Shown here: positions 13,508 to 31,743 of the stretch, piece by piece
Numbering within the stretch: the first letter of the stretch is position 1
Layout of the letters: every line of letters starts with the position of its first letter
Origin: Oscillospiraceae bacterium
GTDB taxonomy: Bacteria; Bacillota; Clostridia; Oscillospirales; Acutalibacteraceae
Direction of reading: 5' to 3'
Assembly (NCBI GenBank): GCA_009777055.1
Contig: WRMQ01000001.1
Span: 11,141 to 75,140 of the forward strand
Length of the DNA: 64,000 nt
Notes under the pieces: generated by a model
The model's input: the letters and a program-made list of their open reading frames with translations, nothing else
What the model was told of the DNA's origin: nothing
Databases searched by the model: none
Translations under genes and position numbers: made by a program

Positions 13508-14887
13508 TCATCTATGCGCCGCCGCCAGCCATATCGCGCACTCCATCCGCTTGCGGAACAGCTCGCAGCCCTCCTCGTGCAGCCCGTGGATCGAACCGCC
13601 CGCGTGGTACGCGTTGGCCGCGCAGCCGCCGGAGCAGTAGAACCGCGCCCAGCACGCCCGGCATTCCGGGCGGGAAAACAACGTGCAGCGGCGAAATTCA
13701 TCGCAAATTTCGGGCCTGGTGACGCCTTTCCACACGTTGCCCAGACGAAAAGCCTCCTCCCCCACAAACTGGTGGCAGGGATACAGCTCTCCCGCCGGGG
13801 TGACGGCCAGGTACTCCGTGCCGGAGCCGCAGCCGGTGACGCGCTTATACAAGCAGGGCCCGTGGGAGAGATCCAGCATATAATGATAAAAATCGAAGCT
13901 CTCCCTGGTACCCCGCCGCCGGGCCATTTCCAGGGCAAGGGCCTCGTATTCTTTTTTGACGAGCTCCAGGTCGCCGGCGCGCAGGGCGTGGGGGCTGTCC
14001 GGGTCGCAGACCACGGGCTCCATCGAAAGCGAGCGGAAGCCCAGCGCCGCCATGTGATACAGATCTTTTGTGAAATCGGGATTCGCGTGGGTAAAGGTTC
14101 CGCGCATATAATATGACTTCAGATGATGGGGGCTGCGCTCCCGCTGTTCCGCGAAGCGCTGGAATTTCGGTACGACAACATCGTAGCTGCCGCGGCCCAG
14201 GGTGTCCCGGCGCAGGGCGTCGTGGATCTCCCGCCTGCCGTCCAGGCTCAGCACCACGTTGGACATTTCCCGGTTGCAGAATGCCGTGACCTCGTCGTCT
14301 AATAGCATACCGTTCGTCGTCAGCGTGAAGCGAAAAATTTTGCCTGTCTCCCGCTCCTGCTCCCGGGCGTAACCGACCAGGGCTTTGACAACCTCCCAGT
14401 TCATCAGGGGCTCGCCGCCGAAGAAATCCACCTCCAGGTTTTTGCGCGTTCCGGAATGGGCAATGAGGAAATCCAGGGCCTGCCTGCCCACCTCGAAGGG
14501 CATGAGCGCCGCTGCGCCGTGATATCTCCCGGCCTTCGCGAAGCAATAGTCACAGGTAAGATTGCAGCTGTGGGAAACGTGCAGGCACAGCGCCTTCACA
14601 ATTCCGCGATTGCGCTCCCGGGTACGCGCCGCCAGGGCTTCATAGTCTTCCCCCGGGGAAAAAAGCCTGCCCGCCGCGATCAGCGCCTCAATATCGGCAA
14701 AGAGCTGATTCAGCTCTTCCTCCGTGACAGAAAATCTTTCTTTTAATATGCTCTTATTTAATTGAGAATTGAGAATTGAGAATTGAGAATTGATCACGGC
14801 GTAGGCCAGGGGGTCAACAACATGCACTGACCCGCTGTTGATGTCCAGTATGATGTTTTTTCCGTGCAATTGATAGGCGTGTATCAC
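13508..14887 (-). CDS. ScfB/CteB-type SPASM radical SAM enzyme (SCIFF-maturase-like)
   Basis: The N-terminus (M)IHAYQLHGKNIILDINSGSVHVVD matches the ScfB/CteB N-terminal domain. Further matches: CLHVSHSCNLTCDYCFA, LEVDFFGGEPLMNW, FRFTLTTNGMLL, GCGSGTEYLAVTPAGELYPCHQFVG, CWARFYCSGGCAANAY. The GTG start overlaps the sulfatase stop (GTGA). Confidence 0.8.
   Translation of the reverse strand: MIHAYQLHGKNIILDINSGSVHVVDPLAYAVINSQFSILNSQLNKSILKERFSVTEEELNQLFADIEALIAAGRLFSPGEDYEALAARTRERNRGIVKALCLHVSHSCNLTCDYCFAKAGRYHGAAALMPFEVGRQALDFLIAHSGTRKNLEVDFFGGEPLMNWEVVKALVGYAREQERETGKIFRFTLTTNGMLLDDEVTAFCNREMSNVVLSLDGRREIHDALRRDTLGRGSYDVVVPKFQRFAEQRERSPHHLKSYYMRGTFTHANPDFTKDLYHMAALGFRSLSMEPVVCDPDSPHALRAGDLELVKKEYEALALEMARRRGTRESFDFYHYMLDLSHGPCLYKRVTGCGSGTEYLAVTPAGELYPCHQFVGEEAFRLGNVWKGVTRPEICDEFRRCTLFSRPECRACWARFYCSGGCAANAYHAGGSIHGLHEEGCELFRKRMECAIWLAAAHR
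14761..14795. repeat. Heptanucleotide tandem array (ATTGAGA x4 + ATTGATC) inside the scfB-like CDS
   Basis: Plus strand reads attgaga attgaga attgaga attgaga attgatc. On the coding strand this encodes VINSQFSILNSQL. Confidence 0.9.
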
Positions 14888-16497: not shown

Positions 16498-16827
16498 ACC
16501 GTTATCGTACCACAACTGGCGGAATATTGCAAGCGTGTTTTTGAGGAAGAAAGCAATTTTATGATAAAACCGGCGGCGGCAGGATTTGAGAAGCGCCTGA
16601 CAATATCTGCGTGCAATTCAAGCAATGTATTCCCGCTTATTGTGAATTAAGAAAAATAAAGATATATTTCAGGAAAAAAATGAAAAAACAGCCGGAATTT
16701 CGCTTGACAATGAGCGGATTTTCGTGTTATCGTTCCATAGCTTTAACGCGCAAAACACCAATTCGTAAAAGCCCTGCCAGGCAGGATGTCAAGCAACAAG
16801 CCTTTCAAAGCTTAAGGAGGACGAAAA

Positions 16828-19800
16828 ATGAAACTGCGTAGAAGCATAGCCATGCTGATGGCGGGGCTGGTGGTTTCGCTGCTCATACTGCCGATCGCGG
16901 GGACGCAGGCCCAGGAGCCGGACGCGTCGAGCATTTCCGGCGCGCTGTGGGTGGACGGCAACGGCATGCTGCCCACGGACTGGAACGGCCTGCGCGACGA
17001 GGGCGAGCCCCCGCTGGCCGGGTACAGCGTCGCCCTTTACGCGTTCGACGACCGGGAGGAGCCCATTGACTCCACCGTGACAGACGAGCAGGGCGAATAC
17101 ATATTTGAAGGCGTGGCCTCCGGCAGCTATGTGCTGGGTCTTGTGTCGGGCTTCGCGGGCGGCAACGAATATCTGCTTCCCATGGCCGTCACGCAGGAGA
17201 GTGTCTTCGCCATCGACTGGCAGAGCGAGCCGCTGACCGCCTGGTCGGCGGAAATCGTGATCGCCGGGGACGACGAGGCTGTTACCGGCATGGACGCCGG
17301 CATGCGCCTGCCCATGGGGATTGTGCCCCTGGCGGGTGAATTCGTGGTTTCGGGCGCGGCCTCGGGCGTGTATGACAGCCTGGCCGACGCCATAAGCGCG
17401 GTCAACGCCGGGCCCGCGGGCACTTATACCGTTACAGTGGGCAAGAACGAGACCATGGCGGCCGGGCCGCTGGTCATCGACGCGGGCCGGAACGTGACGC
17501 TGCAGTCCTCCGGCGGGCCCTGGACCGTTATGTACGCGGGCTCGGGCAAGCACATCAAGGTGGAGGGGCAGCTGACGCTGAAGAACCTCACGCTGGATGG
17601 CGCGAACAACGCCGGCGGCATAGAGGTTTCATACGGCGGCGCGCAGCTGACCATGGAGGCCGGCGCTGTCATCACGCACTGCAGAGTTGGCGTCAACTGT
17701 TACGGCAACTTCGTTATGAACGACGGCCTGATCACCGAAAACGTTGGCTTCAACGGCTTGGGTGTAAGCATAAACAACGGGGCATCCTTCACCATGTATG
17801 ACGGCGAGATTTCACGCAACGTCAGCAATGACGCCGGCAACGGCGGCGGCGTGTATAACAACTACGGCATGTTCACCATGCATGGCGGAAGGATTATTGA
17901 GAACCAGAACGAATTCGGCGGCGGCGTGTATTCCGCTTTAAGTGGAAGCGTAGGCTTTATCATGCATGGCGGCGAAATTTCCGACAATGTAGCCTTTTCG
18001 TCGGGCGGCGGCGTGAGAATTGGTCTCGGCGGGTTTGAGATGCACGGCGGCGAGATTTCCAGAAACCAGACTGGCGGCGGGATGTATGATAGCACAGGTG
18101 GCGGTATATACTTTAGCTCTATTTCTTCATTCACCATGACCGACGGCGAGATTACCGGCAACAATGCGATTGGTGGCTATGGCGGCGGCTTTGCTGTCAA
18201 CGGCTCCTGCGCGGCCACCCTGTCAGGCGGGGCGATTTATGGCAACGAGGCGACAGCCGGCGGCGGCATTCGATTTTCCGGCAGTTACCCGCTCAACCTG
18301 GATGGCGTTGAGATCTACGGCAATAAGGCCGAGCAGAGCGGCGGCGGCATACTCAACAACAGCTCATCCCCATCTATCATGAGCGCCGGCCGGATTTACG
18401 ACAATGAGGCCGTCCGGGGCGGCGGGCTGCTCAACGGCATGTTCAGCTCATTCACCATGAACGGCGGCGAAATTTCCGAAAACAGGGCGCAGGGAACGGT
18501 CGTCATGTATGGAACTGTTGAATTAGCCGCGGGCGGCGGGGTGTATAACGAACAAAGAGGCTCGTTCACCATGAACGGCGGCGAGATTACCCGCAACGAG
18601 AGCGGCGGCGACGGCGGCGGCGTGTACAATAAAGCGACCTTTGATTTGTACAGCGGCGGCAAGATTACCGATAACACGGCCGCGGGCAGCGGCGGCGGCG
18701 TCTACGCCGGCTACGATGATGATTTCTCTACCAGTAGCACCTTTACGATGCATGGCGGCGAGATTTCCGGAAACATCGCCGGCAGCGACGGCGGCGGCGT
18801 GTACGCGGAGCGCTACAATTCCAGCTCCTTCGGCTATTTCTTTATGGACGGCGGGCTTATCACCGGCAATACAGCCGGGGGTGACGGCGGCGCGATTTTC
18901 TCGGGGGACTACGACTACGGCGACCCCTCTGACCCGCAGAGATACTCGAATATCGGCGTCGCACCCTCCGCTGTGGTCAGCGGAAACACGGCCCAAAGGG
19001 GCTTCCTGCCGCCCATCAACGCGGTGGACTTCACCAACCGAAGCACCAACCCCTTCGACGGCGACCTGATGACGAACCACGAAATCAACTATCGCATCCC
19101 CTCGATAAAGATCACTTATAAGGCCAACGGCGGCGGCGGCCTGGATGTCATACAGGACACGGGCGTTTTGATCACCGACGCGCCCGCGGTCGGGCTGACG
19201 ATCAAAACACAGGCGGAAACCGGCTTTACCGCCCCCATGGGCAGCGGCGCGGCCTTTTTGGGCTGGAACACGCAGTCAAACGGCCTGGGCACGCATTATG
19301 ACGAGGGTCAGACCCCCGTGAGCCTCAACAGCAGCATTATCCTGTATGCCCAGTGGGATTTTGCCTATCGCTATGTGGTCACGAAGGACAGCGACGGCTC
19401 ACCCGCCGGCAGCTACCACTGGCTGCAGGACGCCGTGGACGCCTGCGGCACTGACGGGGCCTATACCATCACCCTGACAGGCGAGAACGACGACGATATG
19501 ACCGACAGGTACAATAGTGCCGGCTCGCCCGGGGTTCCGGTGTTCGTCGGCACGCCCACCAGCGGCAATTCCGTGTATGTGGCCATTCCTTCGGGCAAAA
19601 GCGTCACGCTCACCTCAGACGAATACGGACCCTATTACATCAGGCAGCAGTGCATGAATATGCGGCACTTTGTGGTGGAAGGCGATTTGACGCTGGCGAA
19701 TATTGAGCTGGCGGGGGTCGGGCAATATAGCATGCCGCTTGGCGGCGTGGACATCGCGGCGAACGCCTCGCTGACCATGGAGGCGGGCTCCGCCATCCGC

Positions 19801-22800
19801 GACTGCAACGGCGTCGTCTCAATGTCCTCCTCCTCCTCCTTTTATGGGGGATATGGCGGCGGCGTGTTTGTGGAAAGCGGCGGCGCCTTCACGATGAACG
19901 GCGGCGAGATCAAGAACTGTATGGCCCAGGCCGATGGCGGCGGTGTGTTCCTGAAGCCCAACGCCATTGGCGCGATGACCGGCGGCGTCATCCGCGATAC
20001 GAGGACTTACGGCAGCGGCGGCGGTATATATCTGTCGTACCAAAGCGTTTTCGTGATGGATGGCGGCGAAATCAACGATACCCACGCCTACGGCGGCAGC
20101 GGCGGCGGCGTGAACAGCCAGGAAGGCTCCTTCAGCATGAACGGCGGCCTGATTTCCGAAAGCTATGCCTACGGCGGGCCCGGCGGCGGCGTGTATGTCT
20201 ACAACACAGATTTCGTGATGACCGGCGGCACAATTACCGACAACTGCTCCTATGGAGGGCCCGGCGGCGGCGTGAGCATGACAAATGGCGACTTCAGCAT
20301 GAGCGGCGGCGAGGTTTCCAACAACATTACCTACAACGGCGGCGGCGGCGTGTATCTGTATGAGGGCGATTTCGCCATAAGCGGCAGCGCGAAAATTTCC
20401 GATAACTATACCACCGATGACGGCGGCGGCGTGTTTGTATCGTACGGCGACGCGGACATCAGCGGAAACGCCGTCATCAGCGGCAACACTGCGGAAGCGG
20501 AATATGGCCATTACGGCGGCGGCGGTGTGTATCTGTTTGAAGGCGACCTCAGCATGAGCGGCGGCACCGTCAGCGGCAACACCGTGGGACAGGGCTTCAG
20601 AGGCGGCGGCGGCATATTGGTGCGCAACAGCTGGATCGTCAGAAGCAGTGTCACCATGACCGGCGGCACGATCAGCGGCAATACCGTAGGTGAAAACGCC
20701 TGGGGCGGCGGCGGCATATACGTCGAAAACAGCGATTTTGTGATGAGCGGCGGCTCCATCACCGGCAACAGCGCCTCCGAAGCCTGGGGCGAAGGCGGCG
20801 GCGTGCTGCTGGATGAGGGCTCCTTCCTGATGCAGGGCGACGCGGATATCTCCGGCAACGATGCGGCCTGCGGCGGCGGCGGGCTGTACGCCTGCAACAC
20901 CATCATTGATATGCAGGGCGGCACGATCTCCGGCAACAGCGAGGGCGGTGTTGACGAATGGGGCAATGGCACCAGCTGGGGCGGCGGCGGCGTGATGCTC
21001 GACGGAGCCGTGATGACCATGTCCGGCGGCTCCATCACCGGCAACAGCACCCAGGCCGACGGCGGCGGCGTATATGCAGCTCACAACTACGGCGGCGAGC
21101 TGATCATGACCGGCGGCTCCATCACCGGCAACTCGGCGCCTGACGGATACGGCGGCGGCATCTATACGGGGGACTATTGGGACAGCTCCTCGAACGCCTA
21201 CGCTAACCCCGTGAACGCGGACGAAATGTACCGAAACATCACAATTGGCCCCGGAGCCACCGTCAGCGGGAACTCGGCCTTCAGCCGCTTCCTGGTGCCG
21301 TCGGGCATTGTGCCCGGCACGGGCCCCCTGGGCTTTGACCTGAACCTGCTGAACAACGACAATATCAACTGGGAGGGCGACGTGGACCCGAGCCGCTACC
21401 TGGTGTATAAGGACGCGGGCTGGGTTTTCATCGGCGATTATTTCTGGCTGGCCGACGCCATGGACCATTGCGGCACAGACGGGCCCTACACCATCGTCGC
21501 CACCCAGAACGACCAGGATCTGTCTGACACCTACGGGGGCGCCGGCGATTATCTGCCCCCCTTCCTTCAGACGCCCGCGCCGCCCACGATTCCGCCCAGC
21601 GGCGTATGGGCGGTGACGGTTCCCTCGAACAAGACCGTTACCTTCACCTCTGACGCGAACGGGACTTATGTCATCACGCAGCGGAAAACCTTTCACTTTA
21701 TTGTGAACGGCGGCCTGACCCTGGACGGCATCGTGCTCAGCGGCGGCTCCGGGACGGCCGGCAGTGTCACCGTGAACACCGGCGCGTCTCTGACCATGGA
21801 GCCCGGCGCGGTCATCCGCGATTGCCTTAACGTATATGGCGGCGGCGTGATGCTGTCAGCGGGCGGCGATTTCGTCATGAACGGCGGCGAAATCAAGAAT
21901 TGTACGGCGGGCTCCTACGGCGGCGGTGTGTATGCAAACGGCGGCACGTTCACGATGTATGCCGGTGTGATCAGCGGCAACTTTTCAAACGGCCTGGGCG
22001 GCGGCGTATACATGGATCATGGCTCTGTGTTCAACATGCATGGCGGTGCGATTACGGGCAATGAGGCGCCCTACTGGCATGGCGGCGGGGTTTCCGTGAA
22101 CGATACTCTCAACCAGGGCACCACCTTCACCATGACGGGCGGCAGCATCGACAACAACTGGGCCTACGGCTATGGCGGCGGTGTATACAACAATAGCGGG
22201 GATTTCAACGCCAGCGACAGCTTTATCGACAATAATATCTCGGCCAGCCATGGCGGCGGTGTGTATAATTACGCCAGCGAAAGCGGCACGATTACCCTGA
22301 CCCGCACCAGCGTCAGCGGCAATGAGATGCTGTATTACGGCCACGGCGGCGGCATATACAACGAAAGCACCGACATGCAAATAACCGACTGCGTCGTCAA
22401 CAACAACATCACGCCATACCAGGAAGGCGGCGGCATATACGCGGTGAACTGCGCCCTGGAAATCACCGACGGCGAAATCAAGGGCAACAGCGCGCAAAAC
22501 CTGAACGGCGGCGGCATATCAGCGATGTATTGCGACTTGGAGATCGCCGGCACCGAAATCAGCGGCAACTCCGCGCCGGTCGAATACGGCAGCGGCAGCG
22601 GCGCCGGCGGCGGCGGCGGCATATACGCGCTGTACTGCGACATTGAGATAAGAAGCGGCAGCACGATCAGCAACAACGCGGCGGGCGACAGAGGCGGCGG
22701 CGTATGCTCAATCTATTCCGACATTGATATCAGCGACAGCTTCATCGACAACAACACGGCGGTCAACAACGGCGGCGGCGTGTTCAACGCCAACGGCTCC

Positions 22801-24054
22801 GTCGGCATGATCGCCATCACCCGCAGCAGCGTCAGCGGCAATGAAGCGGGCGGAGATGGCGGCGGCGTGAACAACAGCTCAAACGAATTCCGCCTGACCG
22901 ACAGCGTCATCAACGGCAACAAGGCGGACAGCAACGGCGGCGGCCTGTACAACAATGTCTGCGATCTGTACCTGAACAATTGCACGATCACCGGCAACAC
23001 GGCGGGCGTTGACGGCGGCGGCCTGTGGGATTACTACAAGGATACCGTGGTCAGCGGAGGCACGATTTCGGGCAACAGGGCGGGCAACCATGGCGGCGGC
23101 GTGGAGCATGCGGCTTATTCCTTCACCCTGCGGGACGGCGCGGCGGTCACCGGCAATACGGCGGCGGCCGACGGCGGCGGCATATACAACCGGGGTCCCC
23201 TGACGATGCTCGACGGCGATGTTTCCGGCAACGAGGCGGGCGGCCACGGCGGCGGCATGTACGTGCGCTATGACGATTTCATCATGACCGGCGGCTCCAT
23301 CACCGGCAACAGCGCGCCCAACGGCGACGGCGGCGGCATCTTCGCCGAGGATTACGACTACAACGACCCGGTGGACGCCAGCCTGGGCTACACCAACCTG
23401 AGCATCAACTATGGCGGCGGCACGGGCCTGGTCAGCGGAAACACCTCCAGACAGAGAACCATGCCCCCGCAGGTGATCAACGGGCCGCTGAAGTTCAACA
23501 AAAACCTGCTGGATAACCACGAGATCAACCACACCAACGGCGCCGAGCCCACCACGCTGACCGTCACGAAAACGGCGGAAGGCCTCTTCGCGGACTTGTT
23601 CCGGGTATTCCCCTTCACGATATACCTCACGGACGGGGACGACCTGCCGCTCAGCGCGGGCAAGGAGCTGCCCTACACCGGCAGCGCCACGGGCACGCTG
23701 GTGCTCGACGGCGACGGCAAGGCGGCGTTCGGGCTTGCCCACGGGCAGAGCATCATCTTCGACCTGGTGCCGCTGGACGGCAAGGTGCGCATTGTGGAGT
23801 TCGACGACCCGAGCTACGCGGAGTCCTTCATTGACAGCGAGGACGGCATAAGCGTTCCGGGCAGCGACACGGGCCTGCTGGAGATGACCGCGGACCGAAG
23901 CTTCGCCTTCCATAACCAGAGCACCATCATCGTCGGCGGCATAGAAGCCGGCAGCCTGGCGGCCCTGTTCCCGCTGGTCCTGATTCTCTTGGCGGGCGCG
24001 GCGGTAATCATGTGGCAGGCGGCGCGGCGGCGCCGCGGGAGGGCCGCGGCATGA
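16828..24054 (+). CDS. Giant (2408 aa) cell-surface beta-helix repeat adhesin, probable pilus tip protein
   Basis: Signal peptide MKLRRSIAMLMAGLVVSLLILPIAGTQA. N-terminal SdrD/CnaB-like domain. Dozens of GGG(V/I)(Y/F)...F(T/S)M.GG.I..N repeats in three modules. One Listeria-Bacteroides-type repeat. C-terminal CnaB-like domain, hydrophobic helix and RRRRG tail. Confidence 0.85.
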   Translation: MKLRRSIAMLMAGLVVSLLILPIAGTQAQEPDASSISGALWVDGNGMLPTDWNGLRDEGEPPLAGYSVALYAFDDREEPIDSTVTDEQGEYIFEGVASGSYVLGLVSGFAGGNEYLLPMAVTQESVFAIDWQSEPLTAWSAEIVIAGDDEAVTGMDAGMRLPMGIVPLAGEFVVSGAASGVYDSLADAISAVNAGPAGTYTVTVGKNETMAAGPLVIDAGRNVTLQSSGGPWTVMYAGSGKHIKVEGQLTLKNLTLDGANNAGGIEVSYGGAQLTMEAGAVITHCRVGVNCYGNFVMNDGLITENVGFNGLGVSINNGASFTMYDGEISRNVSNDAGNGGGVYNNYGMFTMHGGRIIENQNEFGGGVYSALSGSVGFIMHGGEISDNVAFSSGGGVRIGLGGFEMHGGEISRNQTGGGMYDSTGGGIYFSSISSFTMTDGEITGNNAIGGYGGGFAVNGSCAATLSGGAIYGNEATAGGGIRFSGSYPLNLDGVEIYGNKAEQSGGGILNNSSSPSIMSAGRIYDNEAVRGGGLLNGMFSSFTMNGGEISENRAQGTVVMYGTVELAAGGGVYNEQRGSFTMNGGEITRNESGGDGGGVYNKATFDLYSGGKITDNTAAGSGGGVYAGYDDDFSTSSTFTMHGGEISGNIAGSDGGGVYAERYNSSSFGYFFMDGGLITGNTAGGDGGAIFSGDYDYGDPSDPQRYSNIGVAPSAVVSGNTAQRGFLPPINAVDFTNRSTNPFDGDLMTNHEINYRIPSIKITYKANGGGGLDVIQDTGVLITDAPAVGLTIKTQAETGFTAPMGSGAAFLGWNTQSNGLGTHYDEGQTPVSLNSSIILYAQWDFAYRYVVTKDSDGSPAGSYHWLQDAVDACGTDGAYTITLTGENDDDMTDRYNSAGSPGVPVFVGTPTSGNSVYVAIPSGKSVTLTSDEYGPYYIRQQCMNMRHFVVEGDLTLANIELAGVGQYSMPLGGVDIAANASLTMEAGSAIRDCNGVVSMSSSSSFYGGYGGGVFVESGGAFTMNGGEIKNCMAQADGGGVFLKPNAIGAMTGGVIRDTRTYGSGGGIYLSYQSVFVMDGGEINDTHAYGGSGGGVNSQEGSFSMNGGLISESYAYGGPGGGVYVYNTDFVMTGGTITDNCSYGGPGGGVSMTNGDFSMSGGEVSNNITYNGGGGVYLYEGDFAISGSAKISDNYTTDDGGGVFVSYGDADISGNAVISGNTAEAEYGHYGGGGVYLFEGDLSMSGGTVSGNTVGQGFRGGGGILVRNSWIVRSSVTMTGGTISGNTVGENAWGGGGIYVENSDFVMSGGSITGNSASEAWGEGGGVLLDEGSFLMQGDADISGNDAACGGGGLYACNTIIDMQGGTISGNSEGGVDEWGNGTSWGGGGVMLDGAVMTMSGGSITGNSTQADGGGVYAAHNYGGELIMTGGSITGNSAPDGYGGGIYTGDYWDSSSNAYANPVNADEMYRNITIGPGATVSGNSAFSRFLVPSGIVPGTGPLGFDLNLLNNDNINWEGDVDPSRYLVYKDAGWVFIGDYFWLADAMDHCGTDGPYTIVATQNDQDLSDTYGGAGDYLPPFLQTPAPPTIPPSGVWAVTVPSNKTVTFTSDANGTYVITQRKTFHFIVNGGLTLDGIVLSGGSGTAGSVTVNTGASLTMEPGAVIRDCLNVYGGGVMLSAGGDFVMNGGEIKNCTAGSYGGGVYANGGTFTMYAGVISGNFSNGLGGGVYMDHGSVFNMHGGAITGNEAPYWHGGGVSVNDTLNQGTTFTMTGGSIDNNWAYGYGGGVYNNSGDFNASDSFIDNNISASHGGGVYNYASESGTITLTRTSVSGNEMLYYGHGGGIYNESTDMQITDCVVNNNITPYQEGGGIYAVNCALEITDGEIKGNSAQNLNGGGISAMYCDLEIAGTEISGNSAPVEYGSGSGAGGGGGIYALYCDIEIRSGSTISNNAAGDRGGGVCSIYSDIDISDSFIDNNTAVNNGGGVFNANGSVGMIAITRSSVSGNEAGGDGGGVNNSSNEFRLTDSVINGNKADSNGGGLYNNVCDLYLNNCTITGNTAGVDGGGLWDYYKDTVVSGGTISGNRAGNHGGGVEHAAYSFTLRDGAAVTGNTAAADGGGIYNRGPLTMLDGDVSGNEAGGHGGGMYVRYDDFIMTGGSITGNSAPNGDGGGIFAEDYDYNDPVDASLGYTNLSINYGGGTGLVSGNTSRQRTMPPQVINGPLKFNKNLLDNHEINHTNGAEPTTLTVTKTAEGLFADLFRVFPFTIYLTDGDDLPLSAGKELPYTGSATGTLVLDGDGKAAFGLAHGQSIIFDLVPLDGKVRIVEFDDPSYAESFIDSEDGISVPGSDTGLLEMTADRSFAFHNQSTIIVGGIEAGSLAALFPLVLILLAGAAVIMWQAARRRRGRAAA

Positions 24055-24602
24055 CGCGGGAAGACCAGGCGGACCAGGTCCGCGAGCGGCCGGCCGGCGG
24101 CCCGCCCCCCCCAACGCTTTGGCGCGAGCTGAGAACCTTTGCCATCAAAATCGCGGCGATCGCGGGCATCGGGATGCTGCTGCTGACCTTCGTTTACGGG
24201 CTGCACTACAACCGGGAAGCCGGCATGAGCCCCTCGCTCAAGGACGGCGATCTGGTGGTGTATTACCGCCTGGACAAGGACTACCGTGCCGGAGACCTTC
24301 TCCTGCTGGTTTTCCAGGGAGAAAAGCAGCTGCGCCGGGTCATCGCCTGCGCGGGCGACACGGTGGATATTACCAGCGAGGGGCTCGTGATCAACGGCGC
24401 GCTCCAGCAGGAGCGGGAGATCTACCGGAGAACCGAGCGCTACGCGGAGGGCATCGAATTCCCCCTGACCCTGAACGAGGGCGAGGTCTTCGTTCTCGGC
24501 GACGCGCGCGACAATGTCACCGACAGCCGCGTCTATGGCCCGGTAAAAACGGGCGACACCCTGGGAACCGTGATCGCGGCCCTCAGGCGCAGAAATCTGT
24601 AG
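24051..24602 (+). CDS. Signal peptidase I homologue lacking the Ser/Lys dyad (SipA/LepA-like pilus accessory protein)
   Basis: S26 fold boxes are present (GDLVVY, GDARDNVTDSRVYG). However, box B reads AGMSPSL (Gly where the catalytic Ser sits) and box D reads RRVIACAGD (Arg where the Lys sits). ATGA overlap with the adhesin stop. Confidence 0.75.
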   Translation: MTREDQADQVRERPAGGPPPPTLWRELRTFAIKIAAIAGIGMLLLTFVYGLHYNREAGMSPSLKDGDLVVYYRLDKDYRAGDLLLLVFQGEKQLRRVIACAGDTVDITSEGLVINGALQQEREIYRRTERYAEGIEFPLTLNEGEVFVLGDARDNVTDSRVYGPVKTGDTLGTVIAALRRRNL

Positions 24603-24668
24603 CGATATAGACATGCTCCCCCAAAAGATCATGTTTGTATAAATTCAAAAAAACAGGAGAGACAAGAA

Positions 24669-25973
24669 ATGAAAAAGACCAAAATCCTGCTGGCAATGCT
24701 GCTGGCGCTCACCCTGGCCCTCAGCGCGGGCCTGATGACCGCGTTCGCGGACGAGCCCGACCCCAACATCCCCTTTGGCACACTCAGCGATCCCGCCCAG
24801 GCGGCCATCACCAAGATCCTGCAAATGCCGGAAGGCACGAACCTCCCCACCGCGAACTTCCTGTTCAACGTGGCCTCCCAGAGCGCGCCCACCGGTGTGG
24901 CGTCGCAGGACATTCCCATGCCCGGCACCGCCGGCGTGGTCACCATCAGCTTTGACCCCTCCAGCCTCACAAACGTTACCGTGAACACGGCAGGCGGCGT
25001 TACCCGGTACATCAAAGAGTCGGCGAGCCTGTTCGCGGGCAAATCCTGGCCGGTCCCCGGCGAGTACGTGTACACCATCACTGAGGACGACAGCGCCAGC
25101 TACACCGCCGGCACGAACGAGACAGTGATCTATTCCGGAGCCTCCTACCAGCTCACCGTGTATGTCAAGCAGGACAGCGACAGCGGCACCAATTATATCT
25201 TTGCCATCGGCATGATCAGCATCACAGAGGATGACGGCGAACCGGGCGACCCGGCGCTTAAGAAAGACCCGACCCCCGGCAGCATCAGCCTGACCAATGA
25301 TTACAGCCAGATGATCTTCACCAACAGCTTCATGAAGGTGAATGGCGACAGCGAAACCGACGTGAAAAACCTGAGCATCGAAAAGCTGACCGACGGCGAC
25401 TTCAGAGACGTGACCGAATACTTCAACTTCACCCTGACCATCACCCTTCCCCCCATGGCTGTCGCCGCGGGCCTGGGCGCAGCCTCCTACGAAGCGGTCG
25501 TTCTGGACGACCAGGATGACAACGTGACGGTGGAGCTCAACGGCGCCGCCGACGACGCCGACGGCTTCATCACGGTTGTGCCCGGCACCCCGCTGAACTT
25601 CAGCCTCAAGCATGGCGAGCGCCTGGTGATCCCCGAGCTGCCCATCGGCACCACCTATGCCATTTCGGAAATCAGCCCCACCAACTACATCCCCACCCTG
25701 ACCGTCCTTTCCGGCGGCACTGCGGTTAGCGGCCTTCCGGCCGGCGCGCTGAGCTCGACCCTTACCGCCTCCGGGCTGATCGTGGCCGACACGGCGCCGA
25801 CGACCAACGGCGCGAACAGCGCGCTGTTCACCAACCTGCGCAATGATATCAACATCACGGGCCTGAACATCAACGACCTGCCCTTTATCGGCATGATCGC
25901 CCTGGCGCTGGCCGCCGGCCTGTTCCTCCTGGCGGCGAAAGCCCGCAAGGCGAAGAAGGGCTACAGCTGCTAA
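24669..25973 (+). CDS. Spy0128/FctA-type pilin (probable backbone subunit)
   Basis: Signal peptide. Pilin isopeptide-domain hallmark PGEYVYTITEDD. C-terminal hydrophobic helix plus KARKAKK tail, preceded by DLPFIG. Confidence 0.7.
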   Translation: MKKTKILLAMLLALTLALSAGLMTAFADEPDPNIPFGTLSDPAQAAITKILQMPEGTNLPTANFLFNVASQSAPTGVASQDIPMPGTAGVVTISFDPSSLTNVTVNTAGGVTRYIKESASLFAGKSWPVPGEYVYTITEDDSASYTAGTNETVIYSGASYQLTVYVKQDSDSGTNYIFAIGMISITEDDGEPGDPALKKDPTPGSISLTNDYSQMIFTNSFMKVNGDSETDVKNLSIEKLTDGDFRDVTEYFNFTLTITLPPMAVAAGLGAASYEAVVLDDQDDNVTVELNGAADDADGFITVVPGTPLNFSLKHGERLVIPELPIGTTYAISEISPTNYIPTLTVLSGGTAVSGLPAGALSSTLTASGLIVADTAPTTNGANSALFTNLRNDINITGLNINDLPFIGMIALALAAGLFLLAAKARKAKKGYSC

Positions 25974-26031
25974 GCAAAAGCGAACACTGACTGAATGAGC
26001 GCGCAGGCGCTCTGAAAGGAGAGACCCGCAC

Positions 26032-27036
26032 ATGGGCGTAGCGGCCAAAACCGGCATAAAAGCGATACGGCTGGCAAACGGAGCCCTTGATACGGCAGTC
26101 CTGGCCATCGTACTGCTGCTGATCGCCATTGGCTGCTACGCCATGTGGGACTCGAAGCAATTATTTGACGCGGCAACCGCTGAGAAGTTCGCGGTTTATA
26201 AGCCCGGCGCCGAGGAGGACAGCCCCTCCTTCGAGCAGCTGCGGGCCATGAACCCGGAGGTGTTCGCCTGGCTTACGGTATACGGCACGAACATCGATTA
26301 CCCGGTTGTGCACAGCCCGGACGAAAGCCAGAAGTATGTCAGCGCCGACGCTCTGGGACGATATTCGCTTTCCGGCTCGATATTCCTCGGAAGCGAGCAC
26401 AGCCCCGGCTTCGCGGACTTCAGCAGCATCCTCTATGGCCACCACATGGAAAAGCAGGCCATGTTCGGAGAAATCGGACTCTTTGTCGAAAAAAGCTATT
26501 TCGACGCGCGGCAATACGGCATGCTGTACTTCGGCGGGCGGGCGCACGGGCTGGAATTTTTCGCCTTCCTCCACACCGACGCCTACGACGGCACGATATA
26601 CAGAGCTGGCATCAATGGGCGGGAAGAGCGCGGCGCGTACCTGGATTTGCTGCTTGCCCGGTCGATTCATACCCGCGGCGTCCCGGTGACGGCGGACGAC
26701 AAAATCGTTCTGCTTTCCACCTGCTCGGGCGCATCGACCAACGGACGGGATATTCTCGTCGGAAAAATCACGGATGAGCCCCGCGAAGACCCGTTTGAAA
26801 CGGAAAAACCGGACAACGCGATGGCGCTGGCGGTAGACAGGCTGCCCGGATTGTGGGCGCGGAGCCCGCGATGGGTTAAAATCAGCCTGATTTGCCTGCC
26901 GCTGTTTATCCTGCTGTTGCTGCTGTCCTTGATCATACGAAACACCAGGCAAAAAAATAATAATAAGCAAAAAAACGAGCAAAAACGCACCAATCGAAAA
27001 CAAACCAAAAAGTTACCCGACAAGGGGGGCACATGA
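26032..27036 (+). CDS. Class B sortase
   Basis: NIDYPVVH, ILYGHHM, VLLSTCSG. N-terminal TM helix plus an extra C-terminal TM and basic tail. Confidence 0.8.
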   Translation: MGVAAKTGIKAIRLANGALDTAVLAIVLLLIAIGCYAMWDSKQLFDAATAEKFAVYKPGAEEDSPSFEQLRAMNPEVFAWLTVYGTNIDYPVVHSPDESQKYVSADALGRYSLSGSIFLGSEHSPGFADFSSILYGHHMEKQAMFGEIGLFVEKSYFDARQYGMLYFGGRAHGLEFFAFLHTDAYDGTIYRAGINGREERGAYLDLLLARSIHTRGVPVTADDKIVLLSTCSGASTNGRDILVGKITDEPREDPFETEKPDNAMALAVDRLPGLWARSPRWVKISLICLPLFILLLLLSLIIRNTRQKNNNKQKNEQKRTNRKQTKKLPDKGGT

Positions 27037-28250
27037 AAATGAAATTGCAAAAGCGAACCGGAAAGATTTTGCTGAGCGGCCTGATTCTATCCTGCCTGCT
27101 TTGCCTGCTGATGCCCATGGCGTCCGCCGCGCCGGCGGCGGTTACGCTGACGGTGAATCAGGTGTTTGCCAAGCCGGCCGCGGCCGGGCCGCTGGCGGAA
27201 ACTTTTCAATACCGGCTGGAGCCCATACAGGCCACCAACCCCATGGTCATGGGGACGGTTGCCGGTGTCTATGCCTTTTCCATTACGGGAAACTCTGAAT
27301 TTGACATAGGTCCGATCGCGTTCCCGTCGCCGGGCAAATACAGCTATAGGCTGCTCCATGCCACGGAACCGGCGGCAGGCTATGTCTATGACGAGACGGT
27401 CTATACGCTGGAGGTTCTCGTGAAAGCCGACGGGACATACAGCGTTGTGGCCTCCAAAGAGGGGGGCGACAAGCAGGAGGCTCTGGAGTACAGGCATTCC
27501 TACCAGACCAATGCCAGCGACCCTCTCGTGATGGTGGACCCGCCTGTGGTGAAGACCGTGATCGGTATCCCCCGAAGCCCCGCGCTCTTCAGCTTTGAGC
27601 TGGTGGCGGGCAGCCCCGGCAACCCCATGCCGGCCGGCTCGGTCGACGGCGTGAAAACCGTGTGGATCACGGGCTCCGGCAGCGCGGAGTTCGGCGTGTG
27701 GGCCTATACGCAGCCGGGTGTGTATTATTACACGGTCTCGGAGGTCAATACCGGCGCGAGAGACTATAACTATGACACAACCGTATACACTATCACCGAC
27801 ACGGTGAGTGCCGTGGACGGGGAGCTTGAGGTATCGCGGGTGGTGACCAACGGCGCGAACCGGCAGGTGACGTCGCTGTCGTTCATCAACATCTACAAAG
27901 GCTCCGCGCAGATCCCGGCGATCCCCATTCCGGTGCCGGTCCCGCTGCCGCTGCCGGTGCCTGTTCCGCTGCCGGTTCCGGGGGCGACAGGGCCGGGGGA
28001 TCCGGGAGATCCAGGCGCTCCGGGCGTTCCGGGCGTTCCGGGCGCAGCCGGGCCCAATGATCCCGTGCCGGCGGGCACAGGCGGAACTGGTTCGAATAAC
28101 GCCAAGCTGCCCGGCAAGGGACCTAAAACCGGCGACGAGTCTCAGACCCTGCTGTTCACCTTCCTTTTCTGCGCCGGAACCGCGGCGGCGCTGTTCAGCG
28201 CGGGCTACCTGGTGATACCCGGGAGGCGCAGGGCGAATAAGAGAGGATAG
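27033..28250 (+). CDS. Spy0128-type pilin with proline-rich stalk (probable basal/minor subunit)
   Basis: Two domains with PGKYSYRLLHATE and PGVYYYTVSEVN. Stalk IPAIPIPVPVPLPLPVPVPLPVPG...GDPGDPGAPGVPGVPG. Sorting signal GPKTGD, then hydrophobic helix and RRRANKRG. Confidence 0.75.
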   Translation: MKMKLQKRTGKILLSGLILSCLLCLLMPMASAAPAAVTLTVNQVFAKPAAAGPLAETFQYRLEPIQATNPMVMGTVAGVYAFSITGNSEFDIGPIAFPSPGKYSYRLLHATEPAAGYVYDETVYTLEVLVKADGTYSVVASKEGGDKQEALEYRHSYQTNASDPLVMVDPPVVKTVIGIPRSPALFSFELVAGSPGNPMPAGSVDGVKTVWITGSGSAEFGVWAYTQPGVYYYTVSEVNTGARDYNYDTTVYTITDTVSAVDGELEVSRVVTNGANRQVTSLSFINIYKGSAQIPAIPIPVPVPLPLPVPVPLPVPGATGPGDPGDPGAPGVPGVPGAAGPNDPVPAGTGGTGSNNAKLPGKGPKTGDESQTLLFTFLFCAGTAAALFSAGYLVIPGRRRANKRG

Positions 28251-28252
28251 AT

Positions 28253-29002
28253 ATGCGCAAAAAAAAGGGCCGAAGAATCGCCGCGTGTCTGGTTTTGACG
28301 CTGTCTGTGCCTGTCATGGCGCTGGCCGGCTGGCGTCTGGCGGGCATATGGCAATCCAACCGGGAGGGCAGGGACAGCTATGCGCGCCTGGCCGATTCGG
28401 TGCGCCGCGAATTGCCCGCGCGGGATACGGACGCGGGCGGCAGGGTCATTGATTTCGCGGCGCTGCAAGCGGTCAGCCCGGACGCCGTGGCCTGGCTGGA
28501 ATGCCCGGGCACCGTCATCGATTATCCGGTGATGCGCGCGGCGGATTACAACCACTACCTGCACCGCCTGCCGGATGGCAGCTATAACGCCAACGGCTCC
28601 CTGTTCATTGATTTCAACTGCGCGCCCGATTTCACGGACCAGCTGACGGTTGTCTACGGACACAACATGAAATCGGGGCAGATGTTCGGCTCGCTTACCA
28701 AATACAAGGACCAGGCATATTACCGGGAGCACCCGTATTTTCTGCTCTACACCGCGGGCGGCGGCGCGGCACAGCGCATTGACCTGCTGTACGGCTGCGT
28801 GATCGACGCGGCGCAGTGGCGGGAGCGGGCCTTCTCCTACCAGGTGAATCTGGAGGCGCTGCTGGCCTATGCCGCCTACAACACCACGTTCGACAGCCAG
28901 ACGCAATACAGCCCGGAAGACAGGGTTGTGGCTTTGTCCACCTGCTCCTATGAGTTTGAAGGCGCCCGCTATGTGGTGCTCGGTGTGCTGCGAAGCCAAT
29001 GA
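28253..29002 (+). CDS. Class B sortase
   Basis: VIDYPVMR, VVYGHNMKSGQMFG, VALSTCSY. N-terminal TM helix. Confidence 0.8.
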   Translation: MRKKKGRRIAACLVLTLSVPVMALAGWRLAGIWQSNREGRDSYARLADSVRRELPARDTDAGGRVIDFAALQAVSPDAVAWLECPGTVIDYPVMRAADYNHYLHRLPDGSYNANGSLFIDFNCAPDFTDQLTVVYGHNMKSGQMFGSLTKYKDQAYYREHPYFLLYTAGGGAAQRIDLLYGCVIDAAQWRERAFSYQVNLEALLAYAAYNTTFDSQTQYSPEDRVVALSTCSYEFEGARYVVLGVLRSQ

Positions 29003-29041
29003 AGAAACATAAAATCAAACAAGCTCCCGCTTTCATCCACA

Positions 29042-29076
29042 AGGGCCAGCTGAAATGCTTTCATTTCAACTGGCCC
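29042..29076. terminator. Bidirectional terminator hairpin between convergent operons
   Basis: GGGCCAGCTGAAATG-ctt-CATTTCAACTGGCCC, followed by a T-rich tract. Confidence 0.6.
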
Positions 29077-29112
29077 TCTTTCGGTTTTGTTTTTATATTC
29101 TATTTCTATTCT

Positions 29113-31743
29113 CTATGCCGTAAACGCTACCTTGAAGCAGTGCGACCTGAGCTTTCCCTGGAAAAGCTTGAAGCGTACATCGCCGCCGGTGAGGGTTTTG
29201 TCGCCAACCGTGATGGAGATCACATAACCCGCGCTGTCGGTGACGGGCTTGCCAAACCATTTTGAGGGGTCGCTGCCCAGGGTAATCTTCTTTTCGGGAT
29301 ATTTCTTGTTGTATTCATTCACAAGGGCGCGCAGTTCTTCCACGGTGAACACGGGGCTCGATACGTCTACCTTCTCGATGCTGGCGCGCCCGCCGGCGAG
29401 GTAGGGCGCGGGGTCGCCGCCCCAGACGTACTTCGGGCTGGTGGTTTGTCCGGCGCAGGAGGCGAAATAGAGCGTTTCGGCCACGCCGCTGTTGTAGGCG
29501 AGGTATTCGCCCAGCACGGCATCCACCAGCGCGTAGGCCTTGGCGTGCAGCTTTTTCGCGTAGTCAGTGTTCCAGCTGCTGGTGCTGGCCATGTGCTGGT
29601 TGTTCGTCGTGGTCTTGAAGCTGTTGCGCTTGGCGATGGTGTAGGCGCAGATCACCTGTGCCTTAAAGGCCTCGTCGGCCACGTTGTTGGGATAGCCGAT
29701 TTCGCCGCAGCTTACCCGCGCGAGGTATTCCTTCAGTGTGTATGTAGCGCCATCGTGGGTGACCAGCGCGGGCGGTATGGCGTCGCGTTTAACGGCGATG
29801 CCCGTGGCGTTGTAGTAGTGCAGCAGGATTTGCTTGTAGGTCCAGCCCCTTTGGGTGGCGTAGGCCTTCGCGCCCTCCTGGCTGAGCCCGACGCCGTGGC
29901 CGTAGCCCTGCACGGTGAAGGTAAATATCTGTTTTACGGCGGGAGACAATGTCGTTGCCGGCGCCTTGGTGGTCGTTGGTGCCTTGGATGTCGTTGGGGC
30001 TTTGGATGTCGTTGGCGCCTTGGTTGTTGTGGCGCGCGCCGTCGTCGTCGCCATGGCGTCGCTGATGGCCTCCGCCGCCGACTGGGCAAGCCTTGCCGCC
30101 AGCGCGAGCAGCTGCCGCAGGTAATCCATCACAACGGAAACCACTTGCCGTGTCAGGCGAGGCAGATCAACCAGGGAGTCGTCCTTGAGACTGGCCAGGG
30201 CCGAAAGCGCGCCGCGCAGCAGGCTGTCGCTTTGCCCCGAAGCCAGCGCGGGAGCCTCCAAGCGCGCGGCCGCGGAGGCCGGCTCAGCCACAGGCTGTGA
30301 GATCTGATGTCCGGAGGTGCCGGCCGGGTCTGTTTCCGTTGCCTCAAGCAGCAGGGTGCCGTCTGCGTTATCCGCCAGGATGGCCGCGGTTTTCGTGATC
30401 GTGAGATCCTCCGTTTCGGCGGCGCTGCCGCGCTGGGCCTGGAAGGTGAGCACCAGGCAGGCGAGCACGGAGATCAGCGCCAGGCAGGATGTGGCGATGG
30501 CGCGGCGCCTGGGCCGGTCCTTTTCGTCCTCCTCCGCGGGCAGGGGCAGGGGAATCAGCTCCGCGCCGCGCGGCGGCAGCCCTTGCGTATCCAGGTAATC
30601 GCAGATGAGGCTAAACAGTGCCTCGGCGATGCCGGCCAGGCAGTCCCGCGGCAATTCGCCCGGCTCCAGCTCCAGCTGGCGGACCTGGGCATAGTCCTTG
30701 TCGTGGCACACGGCCAGATGCAGCAGCCGCCCTCCGCCCCGCGTTTTCATGGGCGCGGAGATCACGCCGCAGATATAGCTGTTTGTGCGCGCGCGCAGCT
30801 GCCGCGCGGCTTTTACGATCTTGTCCGATGTGACGGGCTGCAGGCTTTGCTCCAAAACGACAGGGAGGATCGTTTCCGGGATGCTGATTTCCCGCAGCAG
30901 GTCCTGGATGCCGTTTAATTCATGGGGCAGCGCCAGAGCGCAGATATCTCCTCTTTCCGCCAGGAGGGCGATTCGTTTCCGCAGCCGCAGCGTGGCCTGG
31001 GCGTTGTCCTCCCTGCGGCGCGTGAAGCTCTTGATTTCAGCCGTTGTGGGCGCGGCGGGCTCCGGCAGGGGATCGTTCCGCTTTGCCTTGGCCTGAATGG
31101 CTTCCCCGGCCTTTTCTGAAGCGAAGTATTCTGCCCTGGCGTCCGGGAAGGGGACAATTTCCGCCAGGGGCTCAATGCTTTCCGGGCCGATGGGCTCCAG
31201 GCTCAGAGGGGGGACGCTGATCTTTTCGAGCATGCGCTCAATGTTGTTTGACTGGATTTCCGCCTGGGCCTCCGGGGACGCGCCCTCCAAGGCCGCGAGA
31301 TAGGTCAGAACATCCATGCGGATGCCGGCCAGCAGCTGGAGCTCCAGGGGAGTGAACAGCAAGCACTGCGGGCCTTGCCGCAGGGCAAAGCCGTGATACG
31401 CGTTTTCTGTTGTGGGAAAGATTTCGGCCCCCTCGGGAAAGCAGCTGTCCTCTGGCTGTGCGGCGGCTGTGCCGGAAAACTTGACCAGCGGAATCTGCAG
31501 CGCGGCGAAGAGGCTGCGCTTCAGTGCGTGATATTGCCCGGGCTCCGCGGCGATGACGATCAGGTCGCAGAATTCCAGCTGCGGCTTCAGCAGACGCTTG
31601 AGCTGCTCCGGGCTTTTGGCCGTGAATGGTTCCGGCGTGCCGGGAAAGGCACGGTTGATCAGAGCGAGGAGCTCCTGTCGCTCCGGTGACGCCTGGGGAT
31701 CGGCGCACAGGGCGAAGATTCTTGCGTTTTTCATGATTAACAT
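29113..31743 (-). CDS. Membrane protein with C-terminal SpoIID/LytB domain and a large N-terminal cytoplasmic region
   Basis: SpoIID signature FTVQGYGHGVGLSQEGAKAYA. Single TM helix (IATSCLALISVLACLVLTF) around residue 440. APTTSKAPTTSKAPTTTKAP linker. Confidence 0.7.
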   Translation of the reverse strand: MLIMKNARIFALCADPQASPERQELLALINRAFPGTPEPFTAKSPEQLKRLLKPQLEFCDLIVIAAEPGQYHALKRSLFAALQIPLVKFSGTAAAQPEDSCFPEGAEIFPTTENAYHGFALRQGPQCLLFTPLELQLLAGIRMDVLTYLAALEGASPEAQAEIQSNNIERMLEKISVPPLSLEPIGPESIEPLAEIVPFPDARAEYFASEKAGEAIQAKAKRNDPLPEPAAPTTAEIKSFTRRREDNAQATLRLRKRIALLAERGDICALALPHELNGIQDLLREISIPETILPVVLEQSLQPVTSDKIVKAARQLRARTNSYICGVISAPMKTRGGGRLLHLAVCHDKDYAQVRQLELEPGELPRDCLAGIAEALFSLICDYLDTQGLPPRGAELIPLPLPAEEDEKDRPRRRAIATSCLALISVLACLVLTFQAQRGSAAETEDLTITKTAAILADNADGTLLLEATETDPAGTSGHQISQPVAEPASAAARLEAPALASGQSDSLLRGALSALASLKDDSLVDLPRLTRQVVSVVMDYLRQLLALAARLAQSAAEAISDAMATTTARATTTKAPTTSKAPTTSKAPTTTKAPATTLSPAVKQIFTFTVQGYGHGVGLSQEGAKAYATQRGWTYKQILLHYYNATGIAVKRDAIPPALVTHDGATYTLKEYLARVSCGEIGYPNNVADEAFKAQVICAYTIAKRNSFKTTTNNQHMASTSSWNTDYAKKLHAKAYALVDAVLGEYLAYNSGVAETLYFASCAGQTTSPKYVWGGDPAPYLAGGRASIEKVDVSSPVFTVEELRALVNEYNKKYPEKKITLGSDPSKWFGKPVTDSAGYVISITVGDKTLTGGDVRFKLFQGKLRSHCFKVAFTA

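Follow-up and report, generated by a model that had tools for sequence, protein, structure and literature searches.

Pili that depend on both SipA and a class B sortase have been dissected in streptococci only. In the FCT-2/3/4 loci of Streptococcus pyogenes (cpa-sipA/lepA-fctA-srtC(Spy0129)-fctB), a two-domain shaft pilin with Lys-Asn bonds is accompanied by a dyad-less SipA, a class B polymerase and FctB, an Ig-like protein with a polyproline tail (PMC7900414, PMC4049620). SipA is defined by the loss of the Ser-Lys dyad and is required for polymerization in FCT pili (PMC4049620). FctB carries an LPXTG signal for SrtA and consists of a single domain without an isopeptide bond (PMC7900414). 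The PI-2 locus of S. pneumoniae and S. oralis (pitA-sipA-pitB-srtG1-srtG2) shows the same order of tip pilin, sipA, shaft pilin and sortase; its SipA is a dead peptidase too, and its two sortases are of the class B type. No description of a SipA/SrtB pilus in Clostridia, or anywhere outside streptococci, was found in the literature searched. Here, a stretch of 64,000 nucleotides from an Oscillospiraceae bacterium (contig WRMQ01000001.1; the window) was analyzed, in which six adjacent genes (16828-29002) quite probably encode a three-component, sortase-assembled pilus that is SipA-dependent and of the class-B-sortase type, like FCT-2/3/4 and PI-2.

The six genes are closely packed on the forward strand and encode proteins of 2408, 183, 434, 334, 405 and 249 amino acids (aa): a tip adhesin, a SipA-like protein, a shaft pilin, sortase 1, a basal pilin and sortase 2 (Table 1). 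The initial annotation had placed the six reading frames at identical coordinates, and the gene caller used for the contig at ENA gave the same six genes independently. The domain content also agrees with the initial description (Peptidase_S26; FctA and DUF7601; class B sortase, twice; two FctA domains with a Pro-rich stretch). The parallel drawn there with the S. pyogenes FCT loci stands for the components and, as far as the basal pilin, for their order; in sequence and fold, the nearer counterparts of the shaft pilin and sortase 1 are those of PI-2 (PitB and PDB entry 4Y4Q, presumably SrtG1). Judged from the sequences, the core of the FCT/PI-2 type is shared, while a tip of the Cpa or PitA type, an LPXTG signal on the base and tip and shaft signals that literally read xxPTG (EVPTG, VPPTG, VTPTG) are not. 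PI-2 has no FctB-like basal pilin between its sortases, its PitA, by its PDB name, carries a vWFA domain where a 2408-aa putative beta-helix tip is encoded here, and its host is a streptococcus rather than a high-GC spore-former; the signals INITG and IIVGG and the C-terminal transmembrane (TM) helix of sortase 1 are features of the present locus. The FCT loci differ in the thioester domains of Cpa, none of which was detected in the present tip, and in the one-domain FctB, compared with two domains and a candidate K174/E237/N286 triad in the present basal pilin, which in addition ends in a PKTGD signal and is paired with a neighboring SrtB. Finally, no RofA/Nra-type regulator adjoins the operon.

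Table 1. Positions of the pilus genes, their domains and signals, and other features (nucleotides of the window, aa of the encoded protein, or nucleotides of a related locus where so indicated)
Feature	Position	Strand	Remarks
Tip adhesin gene	16828-24054	+	2408 aa
Adhesin, SdrD_B/CnaB-like domain	aa 50-106		after the signal peptide
Adhesin, putative beta-helix module 1	about aa 160-760		
Adhesin, Flg_new domain	aa 761-842		between modules 1 and 2
Adhesin, putative beta-helix module 2	about aa 845-1520		
Adhesin, putative beta-helix module 3	about aa 1520-2240		
Adhesin, DUF7601 CnaB-like domain	aa 2243-2331		followed by the C-terminal sorting signal
Adhesin, sorting signal	23926-24054	+	IIVGG at aa 2367-2371, hydrophobic helix at aa 2377-2396, RRRRGR tail
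SipA/LepA-like pseudo-signal-peptidase gene	24051-24602	+	183 aa counted from the ATG
Shaft (backbone) pilin gene	24669-25973	+	434 aa; PitB/FctA type
Shaft pilin, sorting signal	aa 394-398		INITG
Class B sortase 1 gene	26032-27036	+	334 aa; probable pilin polymerase
Basal pilin gene	27033-28250	+	405 aa; FctB-like
Basal pilin, sorting signal	aa 363-368		GPKTGD
Class B sortase 2 gene	28253-29002	+	249 aa; probable role in anchoring the basal pilin or in termination
Promoter-like site	16704-16733	+	TTGACA-18-TATCGT, 10/12 matches; consensus match only
Intrinsic-terminator hairpin and T-rich tract	hairpin 29042-29077, whole 29042-29095	+	dG -23 kcal/mol, z = -5.9
Third class B sortase	31874-32905	-	TIGR03064 154.8 bits, the only one of three above the cut-off
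MobA/MobL relaxase	454-1362	-	element at tRNA-Tyr
DUF3991/Toprim primase-like protein	5024-5956	-	element at tRNA-Tyr
Tyrosine integrase	5953-6933	-	element at tRNA-Tyr
SpoIIE	56372-58978		window gene
Additional signal peptidase I (Hungatella/Lacrimispora loci)	L008 5621-6031; L011 5763-6212; L016 483-851		Ser and Lys intact

Relatives of the shaft pilin were collected by scanning a genome collection with the peptide pattern [YF]S[QDK]MxFTNxY, which the window pilin itself (YSQMIFTNSF) does not match. The scan gave 16 related loci, in metagenome-assembled genomes as well as isolates of Oscillospiraceae, Lacrimispora, Hungatella, Eubacteriales and Coriobacteriia. On contigs of sufficient length, all or most of the arrangement adhesin, sipA, pilin, srtB, pilin, srtB is found again, and the comparison proposed in the initial annotation finds the same gene order in Oscillospiraceae, Lacrimispora, Hungatella and Coriobacteriia genomes. 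In its wording "gut Clostridia", the word "gut" describes the origin of the relatives only. Many of the 16 genomes are, as we take it from their names, termite-gut bins. Public annotation labels parts of such loci generically. One of them (L005) holds two tandem shaft-pilin paralogues.

The shaft pilin is composed of a signal peptide, an FctA and a DUF7601 domain (Pfam), a sorting signal, a TM helix and a KARKAKK tail. Both domains are CnaB-like isopeptide domains (PMC12617251). Its best sequence matches in the PDB are the PitB proteins of S. pneumoniae and S. oralis (1e-8). Foldseek, run with an AlphaFold2 (AF2) model of mean predicted local distance difference test (pLDDT) 85.6 built on a 20-sequence alignment, also places PitB at the top (E 3e-24, template-modeling (TM) score 0.71 on the target), followed by S. 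pyogenes T-antigens including Spy0128. Among solved structures, PitB (4S3L, 7F7Y, 7W7I) is thus nearest in sequence as well as in fold, and its triad aligns: in the HMMER alignment, K49/E139/N219 of the shaft pilin fall exactly on Lys52/Glu139/Asn213 of S. oralis PitB 7W7I, which form its crystallographic isopeptide triad (PMC12617251). The triad of the second domain is K239/E334/N389. Across 20 homologues, none of the six residues falls below 90% conservation; K49, E139, N219 and, in addition, K198 are invariant. We infer that the internal Lys-Asn bonds form in the shaft subunits. K198 is part of a K-x-DPTPG motif within the long loop that leads into the final strand of domain 1. In Spy0128, Lys161, which forms the inter-subunit link, also resides in the loop ahead of that strand (PMC7900414), and K198, at the same topological place, is a candidate for the polymerization nucleophile.

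The 183-aa protein is assigned to signal peptidase I (Peptidase_S26) by Pfam and NCBIfam. Its best PDB match is S. pyogenes SipA/LepA (4N31, 1.7e-17), compared with 6e-6 for true signal peptidases (SPases). In the alignments, Gly58 replaces the nucleophilic Ser of box B (AGMSPSL vs SMMPTL) and Arg95 replaces the general-base Lys of box D (LRRVI vs VKRII). With the dyad absent and SipA as best match, the SipA-like assignment made at the outset is supported and, on these two substitutions, the protein is catalytically dead. The Lys position could be read in 14 of the SipA-like copies of the related loci and is occupied by Arg (12 copies), Leu (one) or Gly (one), never by Lys; the Ser position is variable. 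A search of the whole family gave at least 121 representatives (clusters at 50% identity) at E <= 1e-30, and the catalytic Lys is kept in none of the 150 best representatives. Three Hungatella/Lacrimispora loci contain, beside the dead SipA-like gene and just upstream of the tip adhesin, a separate true SPase paralogue with both Ser and Lys intact. As these neighbors keep both residues, the loss of the Lys is specific to the pilus-linked paralogue.

Both operon sortases match class B best, in line with the initial classification. All their PDB matches are class B enzymes, the catalytic H137 (YGH) and C231 (STC) are present in both in alignment with 4Y4Q, and their best family by far is the NCBIfam class B sortase TIGR03064 (149.0 bits for sortase 1 and 139.0 for sortase 2, with a curated trusted cut-off of 153.75). 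Sortase 1 is about 50% identical to 4Y4Q over 210 residues (1.3e-58) and matches Spy0129, the S. pyogenes pilus polymerase (3PSQ), at 1.7e-32. Housekeeping SrtBs follow at about 1e-18 to 1e-23, well below these specific matches of sortase 1 to the pilus-polymerase subgroup. The PDB identities of the sortase matches are confirmed in PMC11987632 (for 4Y4Q, see below). An extra TM helix (aa 281-302) with a basic tail is present at the C-terminus of sortase 1, and the helix is conserved in its homologues. Such a helix is a feature of class C polymerases and is not seen in Spy0129 (PMC7900414).

Sortase 2 matches class B structures at 7.5e-27 to 1e-14 and is about equidistant from 4Y4Q and the housekeeping enzymes, to which the third class B sortase of the window is about equally similar. 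The best PDB matches of this third sortase are the housekeeping SrtBs of Listeria, Clostridium perfringens, Bacillus anthracis, Staphylococcus aureus and Clostridioides difficile, and this housekeeping-like enzyme may anchor PKTGD substrates. Its gene is found just upstream of one for an 876-aa SpoIID/LytB-domain protein (29113-31743, reverse strand), which has no sorting signal.

In the basal pilin, two FctA-type domains are followed by a Pro-rich tail of 53 residues (aa 294-346), a sorting signal, a TM helix and an RRRANKRG tail. The protein matches FctB (3KLQ and 8K6T) at 4e-6, in an alignment that covers the second domain and extends into the Pro-rich tail. Its AF2 model (pLDDT 81.7) retrieves Spy0128 (Foldseek E 2.5e-11) and FctB (TM score 0.76, root-mean-square deviation 3.2 Å). 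The residues K174/E237/N286, conserved in the family, form a candidate isopeptide triad. Native FctB is without such a bond, and the engineered substitutions Q67E and P117N together with N13K create one (PMC7900414). In our reading of the sequence alignment, E237 and N286 correspond to the FctB Gln and Pro, the positions of Q67E and P117N. K174 is upstream of the aligned region; its family conservation suggests that it is the equivalent of the N13K position. In domain 1 (27033-27500), an invariant Gln (Q43) stands in place of the FctA isopeptide Lys and the usual Glu is an Arg in the window copy; this domain is probably without a Lys-Asn bond. K147, also invariant, is positioned in the loop that precedes the final strand of domain 1 and appears to be the best candidate for attachment to the shaft. 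Taken together, both pilins model as CnaB-type proteins and contain Lys/Glu/Asn triads that are invariant or nearly invariant in their families; this check, proposed in the initial annotation, came out in its favor, as did the other computational ones proposed there.

The same source had described the basal pilin as FctB-like with a polyproline tail. This description holds; its signal is the class-B-type GPKTGD and not an LPXTG for a class A sortase. P364, T366, G367 and D368 are invariant in 41 homologues, and the match to the srtB_target model is weak (16.5 bits vs a cut-off of 18.15). The PKTGD resembles the SrtB substrates of B. anthracis (NPKTGDE) and C. difficile (PPKTGDS) (PMC11987632). 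Housekeeping class B systems of this kind (SrtB-IsdC with NPKTGDE in B. anthracis; SrtB with (S/P)PXTG in C. difficile), with signals closely similar to the GPKTGDES of the basal pilin, anchor monomers, whereas the substrate here is an FctB-like pilus base encoded in a pilus operon. In six related loci, the gene next after that of the basal pilin is the sortase 2 gene; it is absent from two others (L005 and L015), in which the PKTGD is also missing. This pairing, and the joint loss, weakly support a partnership between sortase 2 and PKTGD. In those two loci, the basal pilin (L005 13971-15302, L015 2738-4342) ends in an acidic stretch and two hydrophobic (TM) helices, which suggests that the base is membrane-anchored rather than wall-linked. 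A Coriobacteriia locus (L002 1-3133) encodes the C-terminus of a tip protein (VVISG), a shaft pilin and a short basal pilin with PKTGD; there is no SipA-like gene among the tip and pilin genes and no sortase within 9 kb downstream.

The tip adhesin contains 49 GGG[VILFM] motifs, 48 of which are located inside three modules (13, 16 and 19) and recur about every 27 aa. By blastp, the three modules are paralogous to one another (1e-36 to 2.5e-85). Chlam_PMP (PF02415) is detected in module 3 only, in six stretches (36 bits vs a cut-off of 20.6), and homologues of the adhesin carry Beta_helix, NosD and Chlam_PMP domains. Based on the repeat periodicity and the Pfam matches, the modules are likely to adopt a right-handed beta-helix fold. 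No thioester or vWFA domain was detected by Pfam on segments of the protein, even at E <= 5. The only part that resembles Cpa and PitA is the C-terminal DUF7601 domain, which weakly matches both, as well as positions 586-727 of NCBIfam pilus_ancill_1; this domain is expected to dock the tip onto the shaft. The closest known counterparts of the tip are chlamydial Pmp proteins and other PbH1 beta-helix adhesins. Chlamydial Pmp proteins share the Chlam_PMP-type repeats of module 3; they differ in their autotransporter barrel, in place of which a Gram-positive sorting signal follows a pilin-type DUF7601 domain here. Indeed, no C-terminal autotransporter beta-barrel was matched by Pfam in the adhesin.

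These repeat and Pfam data agree with the earlier view of the tip as a protein of beta-helix repeats without the usual Cpa-type domains; the repeats are of the PMP type. That its size is exceptional, as stated earlier, was not confirmed. Tip proteins of related loci include one-module versions of about 900-1270 aa, and relatives with the same C-terminal domain reach 2181, 2357 and 2960 aa. Since such relatives exist, the 2408-aa adhesin is large for its family but not unique.

The sorting signals of tip and shaft deviate from those of their families. At the position of IIVGG, adhesin homologues have EVPTG, VPETG, IVPTG, PPPTG, APESG, VVISG or IPPGG, and shaft-pilin relatives end in [VT]TPTG; the PitB signal, VTPTG, is the same as this consensus (PMC10548224). 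Position, invariant Gly, TM helix and basic tail are kept in both window signals, and the LxxNDLPF box downstream of the shaft signal is retained. The nearest adhesin relative has IPPGG, and in others the Thr is replaced by A, S or G. The deviation therefore suggests a natural tolerance at the cleavage position, a trait of the lineage rather than decay, and this is the weakest link of the model.

In the proposed assembly, the three structural proteins, as read directly from their sequences, would be exported by the Sec pathway and held in the membrane by a C-terminal hydrophobic helix and a positively charged tail. Sortase 1 and the dead SipA-like protein would cleave tip and shaft before the invariant Gly (IIVG/G and INIT/G), and sortase 1 would link the C-terminus so created with an invariant lysine on the following shaft subunit, for which K198 is the best candidate. 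The model for this step is homology to Spy0129 and to what we take to be SrtG1. The shaft subunits would be stiffened by K49-N219 (E139) and K239-N389 (E334) bonds, of which the residues are visible and the bonds predicted. Growth would end with the addition of the FctB-like basal pilin through an invariant lysine (candidate K147), the polyproline tail of which would span the wall. As the gene pairing suggests, sortase 2 would then cleave the GPKTGD of the basal pilin and link it to peptidoglycan, with the third SrtB as the alternative enzyme. At the other end, the three modules of the tip, with some 48 PMP-type beta-helix coils in all, would form an adhesive surface. Class C pili (Corynebacterium SpaA, Lactobacillus rhamnosus SpaCBA, C. 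perfringens) are likewise covalent tip-shaft-base fibers with isopeptide-stabilized CnaB/CnaA domains, the polymer being a prediction here, and their polymerases carry a C-terminal TM helix, as does sortase 1. They differ in that the present locus has no class C sortase, YPKN pilin motif or LPXTG, and SipA is absent from class C systems; in fold, the pilins described here match SpaA-type pilins only distantly (E > 1e-4).

Several observations weigh against this assembly. The scores of sortases 1 and 2 are just below the trusted cut-off of TIGR03064. The entry 4Y4Q, which we presume to be SrtG1, is labeled "Sortase, SrtB family" in the database, and no confirmation of its identity was found. 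Both IIVGG and INITG are without the Pro of the family consensus, and the adhesin is also without the Thr at the cleavage position; as a result, processing of tip and shaft is not assured. The evidence for an anchoring role of sortase 2 is its adjacency to the basal pilin, and the third SrtB gene is only 2.9 kb away. Moreover, three related loci (L002, L007 and L010) have a PKTGD basal pilin and no local second sortase. These last points lead to a different division of labor in a pilus that is still made: the third sortase would anchor the base via GPKTGD, and sortase 2 would be an accessory, pilin-incorporating enzyme that joins tip or base to the shaft, as the extra PI-1/PI-2 sortases may do. 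The third sortase is the only one above the family cut-off, it best matches housekeeping SrtBs, and PKTGD is the classic housekeeping SrtB signal. In addition, SrtG2 is dispensable in the PI-2 of S. pneumoniae (PMC10548224). However, sortase 2 adjoins the basal pilin in six loci and is absent exactly in the two that have lost the signal, and the third sortase belongs to a separate, convergent transcription unit with the SpoIID/LytB-domain protein. We regard this division of labor as rather unlikely, although it deserves more weight than the following two alternatives.

If no polymer were formed, the adhesin and the two pilin-like proteins would be monomers, separately anchored to the wall by dedicated class B sortases. 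This would fit the best known role of clostridial class B sortases, which is wall anchoring, and the SrtB substrates of C. difficile (PMC11987632), as well as the atypical signals of shaft and tip; pilin-like CnaB domains also occur in adhesins that are not pili. It leaves unexplained, however, the conserved dead SipA-like gene, since streptococcal SipA is required specifically for polymerization (PMC4049620). Nor does it account for the specific likeness of sortase 1 to pilus polymerases, for the invariant surface-loop lysines K198 and K147, or for the FctB-like stalk protein and the conserved order of tip, shaft and base, and we consider it improbable. The lost Pro, together with the lost Thr of the adhesin, could also mark a decaying or silent copy, in which the substrates are uncoupled from sortase 1 and no functional pilus is made; IIVGG and INITG indeed depart from the family patterns x-[VP]-P-[TAS]-G and [VT]TPTG. 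Yet all six reading frames are intact, including one of 7.2 kb, both sortases retain their catalytic His and Cys motifs, and the invariant Gly and the downstream box are kept. With the Thr position naturally variable among relatives, decay is the most improbable of the three. A SipA-dependent pilus that is polymerized by sortase 1 and anchored by sortase 2 remains the preferred interpretation.

The arrangement of the genes supports their joint expression. The adhesin stop codon overlaps the SipA-like start (GGCATGACG, 24051-24054) and the sortase 1 stop codon overlaps the start of the basal pilin (CACATGAAA, 27033-27036), which bears out the ATGA overlaps reported initially. The basal pilin and sortase 2 genes are 2 nt apart, and Shine-Dalgarno-like GGAG(G/A) motifs precede the non-overlapping starts. 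The promoter-like site, with a TG before its second hexamer, is situated 95 nt upstream of the adhesin start in a 312-bp intergenic region, and the terminator hairpin is placed between the convergent sortase 2 gene and the gene of the 876-aa protein. Because these two elements bracket the six genes, they are consistent with a single transcription unit, and the locus looks like one operon, as had been claimed. A small open reading frame (ORF) of 88 aa (28999-29265, forward strand), which overlaps the sortase 2 stop codon, was rejected as a seventh gene: it has no family match, spans the terminator and is absent from the ENA gene calls; it is probably not a gene. Upstream riboswitches are common for clostridial surface proteins. 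No riboswitch (c-di-GMP or other) was found at the Rfam gathering threshold in the window, or at E <= 1 in 16450-16900. A look for expression or read evidence yielded no public sequencing run for 24000-29000.

The term "island", used for the locus in the initial annotation, was not confirmed. The GC content of the operon (0.58-0.63) equals that of its flanks, the flanking genes are housekeeping genes, and no sign of a mobile island was found in composition or gene content. An integrative mobilizable element (454-7216) with integrase and relaxase is present beside tRNA-Tyr (7132-7216, reverse strand). It is separate from the pilus operon, from which HflX and a sulfatase/anSME pair divide it, and a genomic-island origin was rejected for lack of evidence. 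This pair, a sulfatase gene followed by a radical-SAM/SPASM enzyme of the anaerobic sulfatase-maturase type (13508-16515, reverse strand), is divergent from the operon. Further downstream (59119-63542, forward strand), two more putative surface proteins are encoded, a pectate-lyase-like beta-helix protein (763 aa) and a Flg_new and FIVAR protein (676 aa). A spore-forming Clostridia lineage such as Oscillospiraceae fits the window, given its SpoIIE and SpoIID-domain proteins, its GC content of about 60% and its best protein matches, which are named Oscillospiraceae. At 90% identity clustering, the window proteins are singletons.

The locus extends a known system; it brings no new principle and nothing surprising in kind. 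The same core module is now seen in anaerobes distant from streptococci, in which the dependence of such pili on a class B sortase and an inactive signal peptidase is a standing question (PMC7900414). The relatives vary naturally in the residues of the sorting signals, the TM helix of the polymerase, and the presence of the basal-pilin signal and of the second sortase. This variation offers a comparative handle on SipA recognition and on the coupling of pilus termination to anchoring. The locus and its relatives also suggest that adhesion by beta-helix tip proteins is common among anaerobes of the gut and the termite gut. The pilin domains are also candidates for new isopeptide scaffolds. With belief and doubt nearly balanced, we tentatively propose a large clade of SipA/SrtB pili in anaerobic Clostridia and Coriobacteriia, with self-sufficient anchoring, a polymerase of lax cleavage specificity and PMP-type beta-helix tips. 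If this is true, a second class B sortase and a PKTGD signal on a two-domain, isopeptide-stabilized base would replace the streptococcal class A sortase. The polymerase would tolerate T, A, S or G at the cleavage position, and therefore the Gly-Gly cut in the tip and the Pro-less signals would be accepted here. Modular PMP-type beta-helix tips would take the place of thioester or vWFA adhesins.

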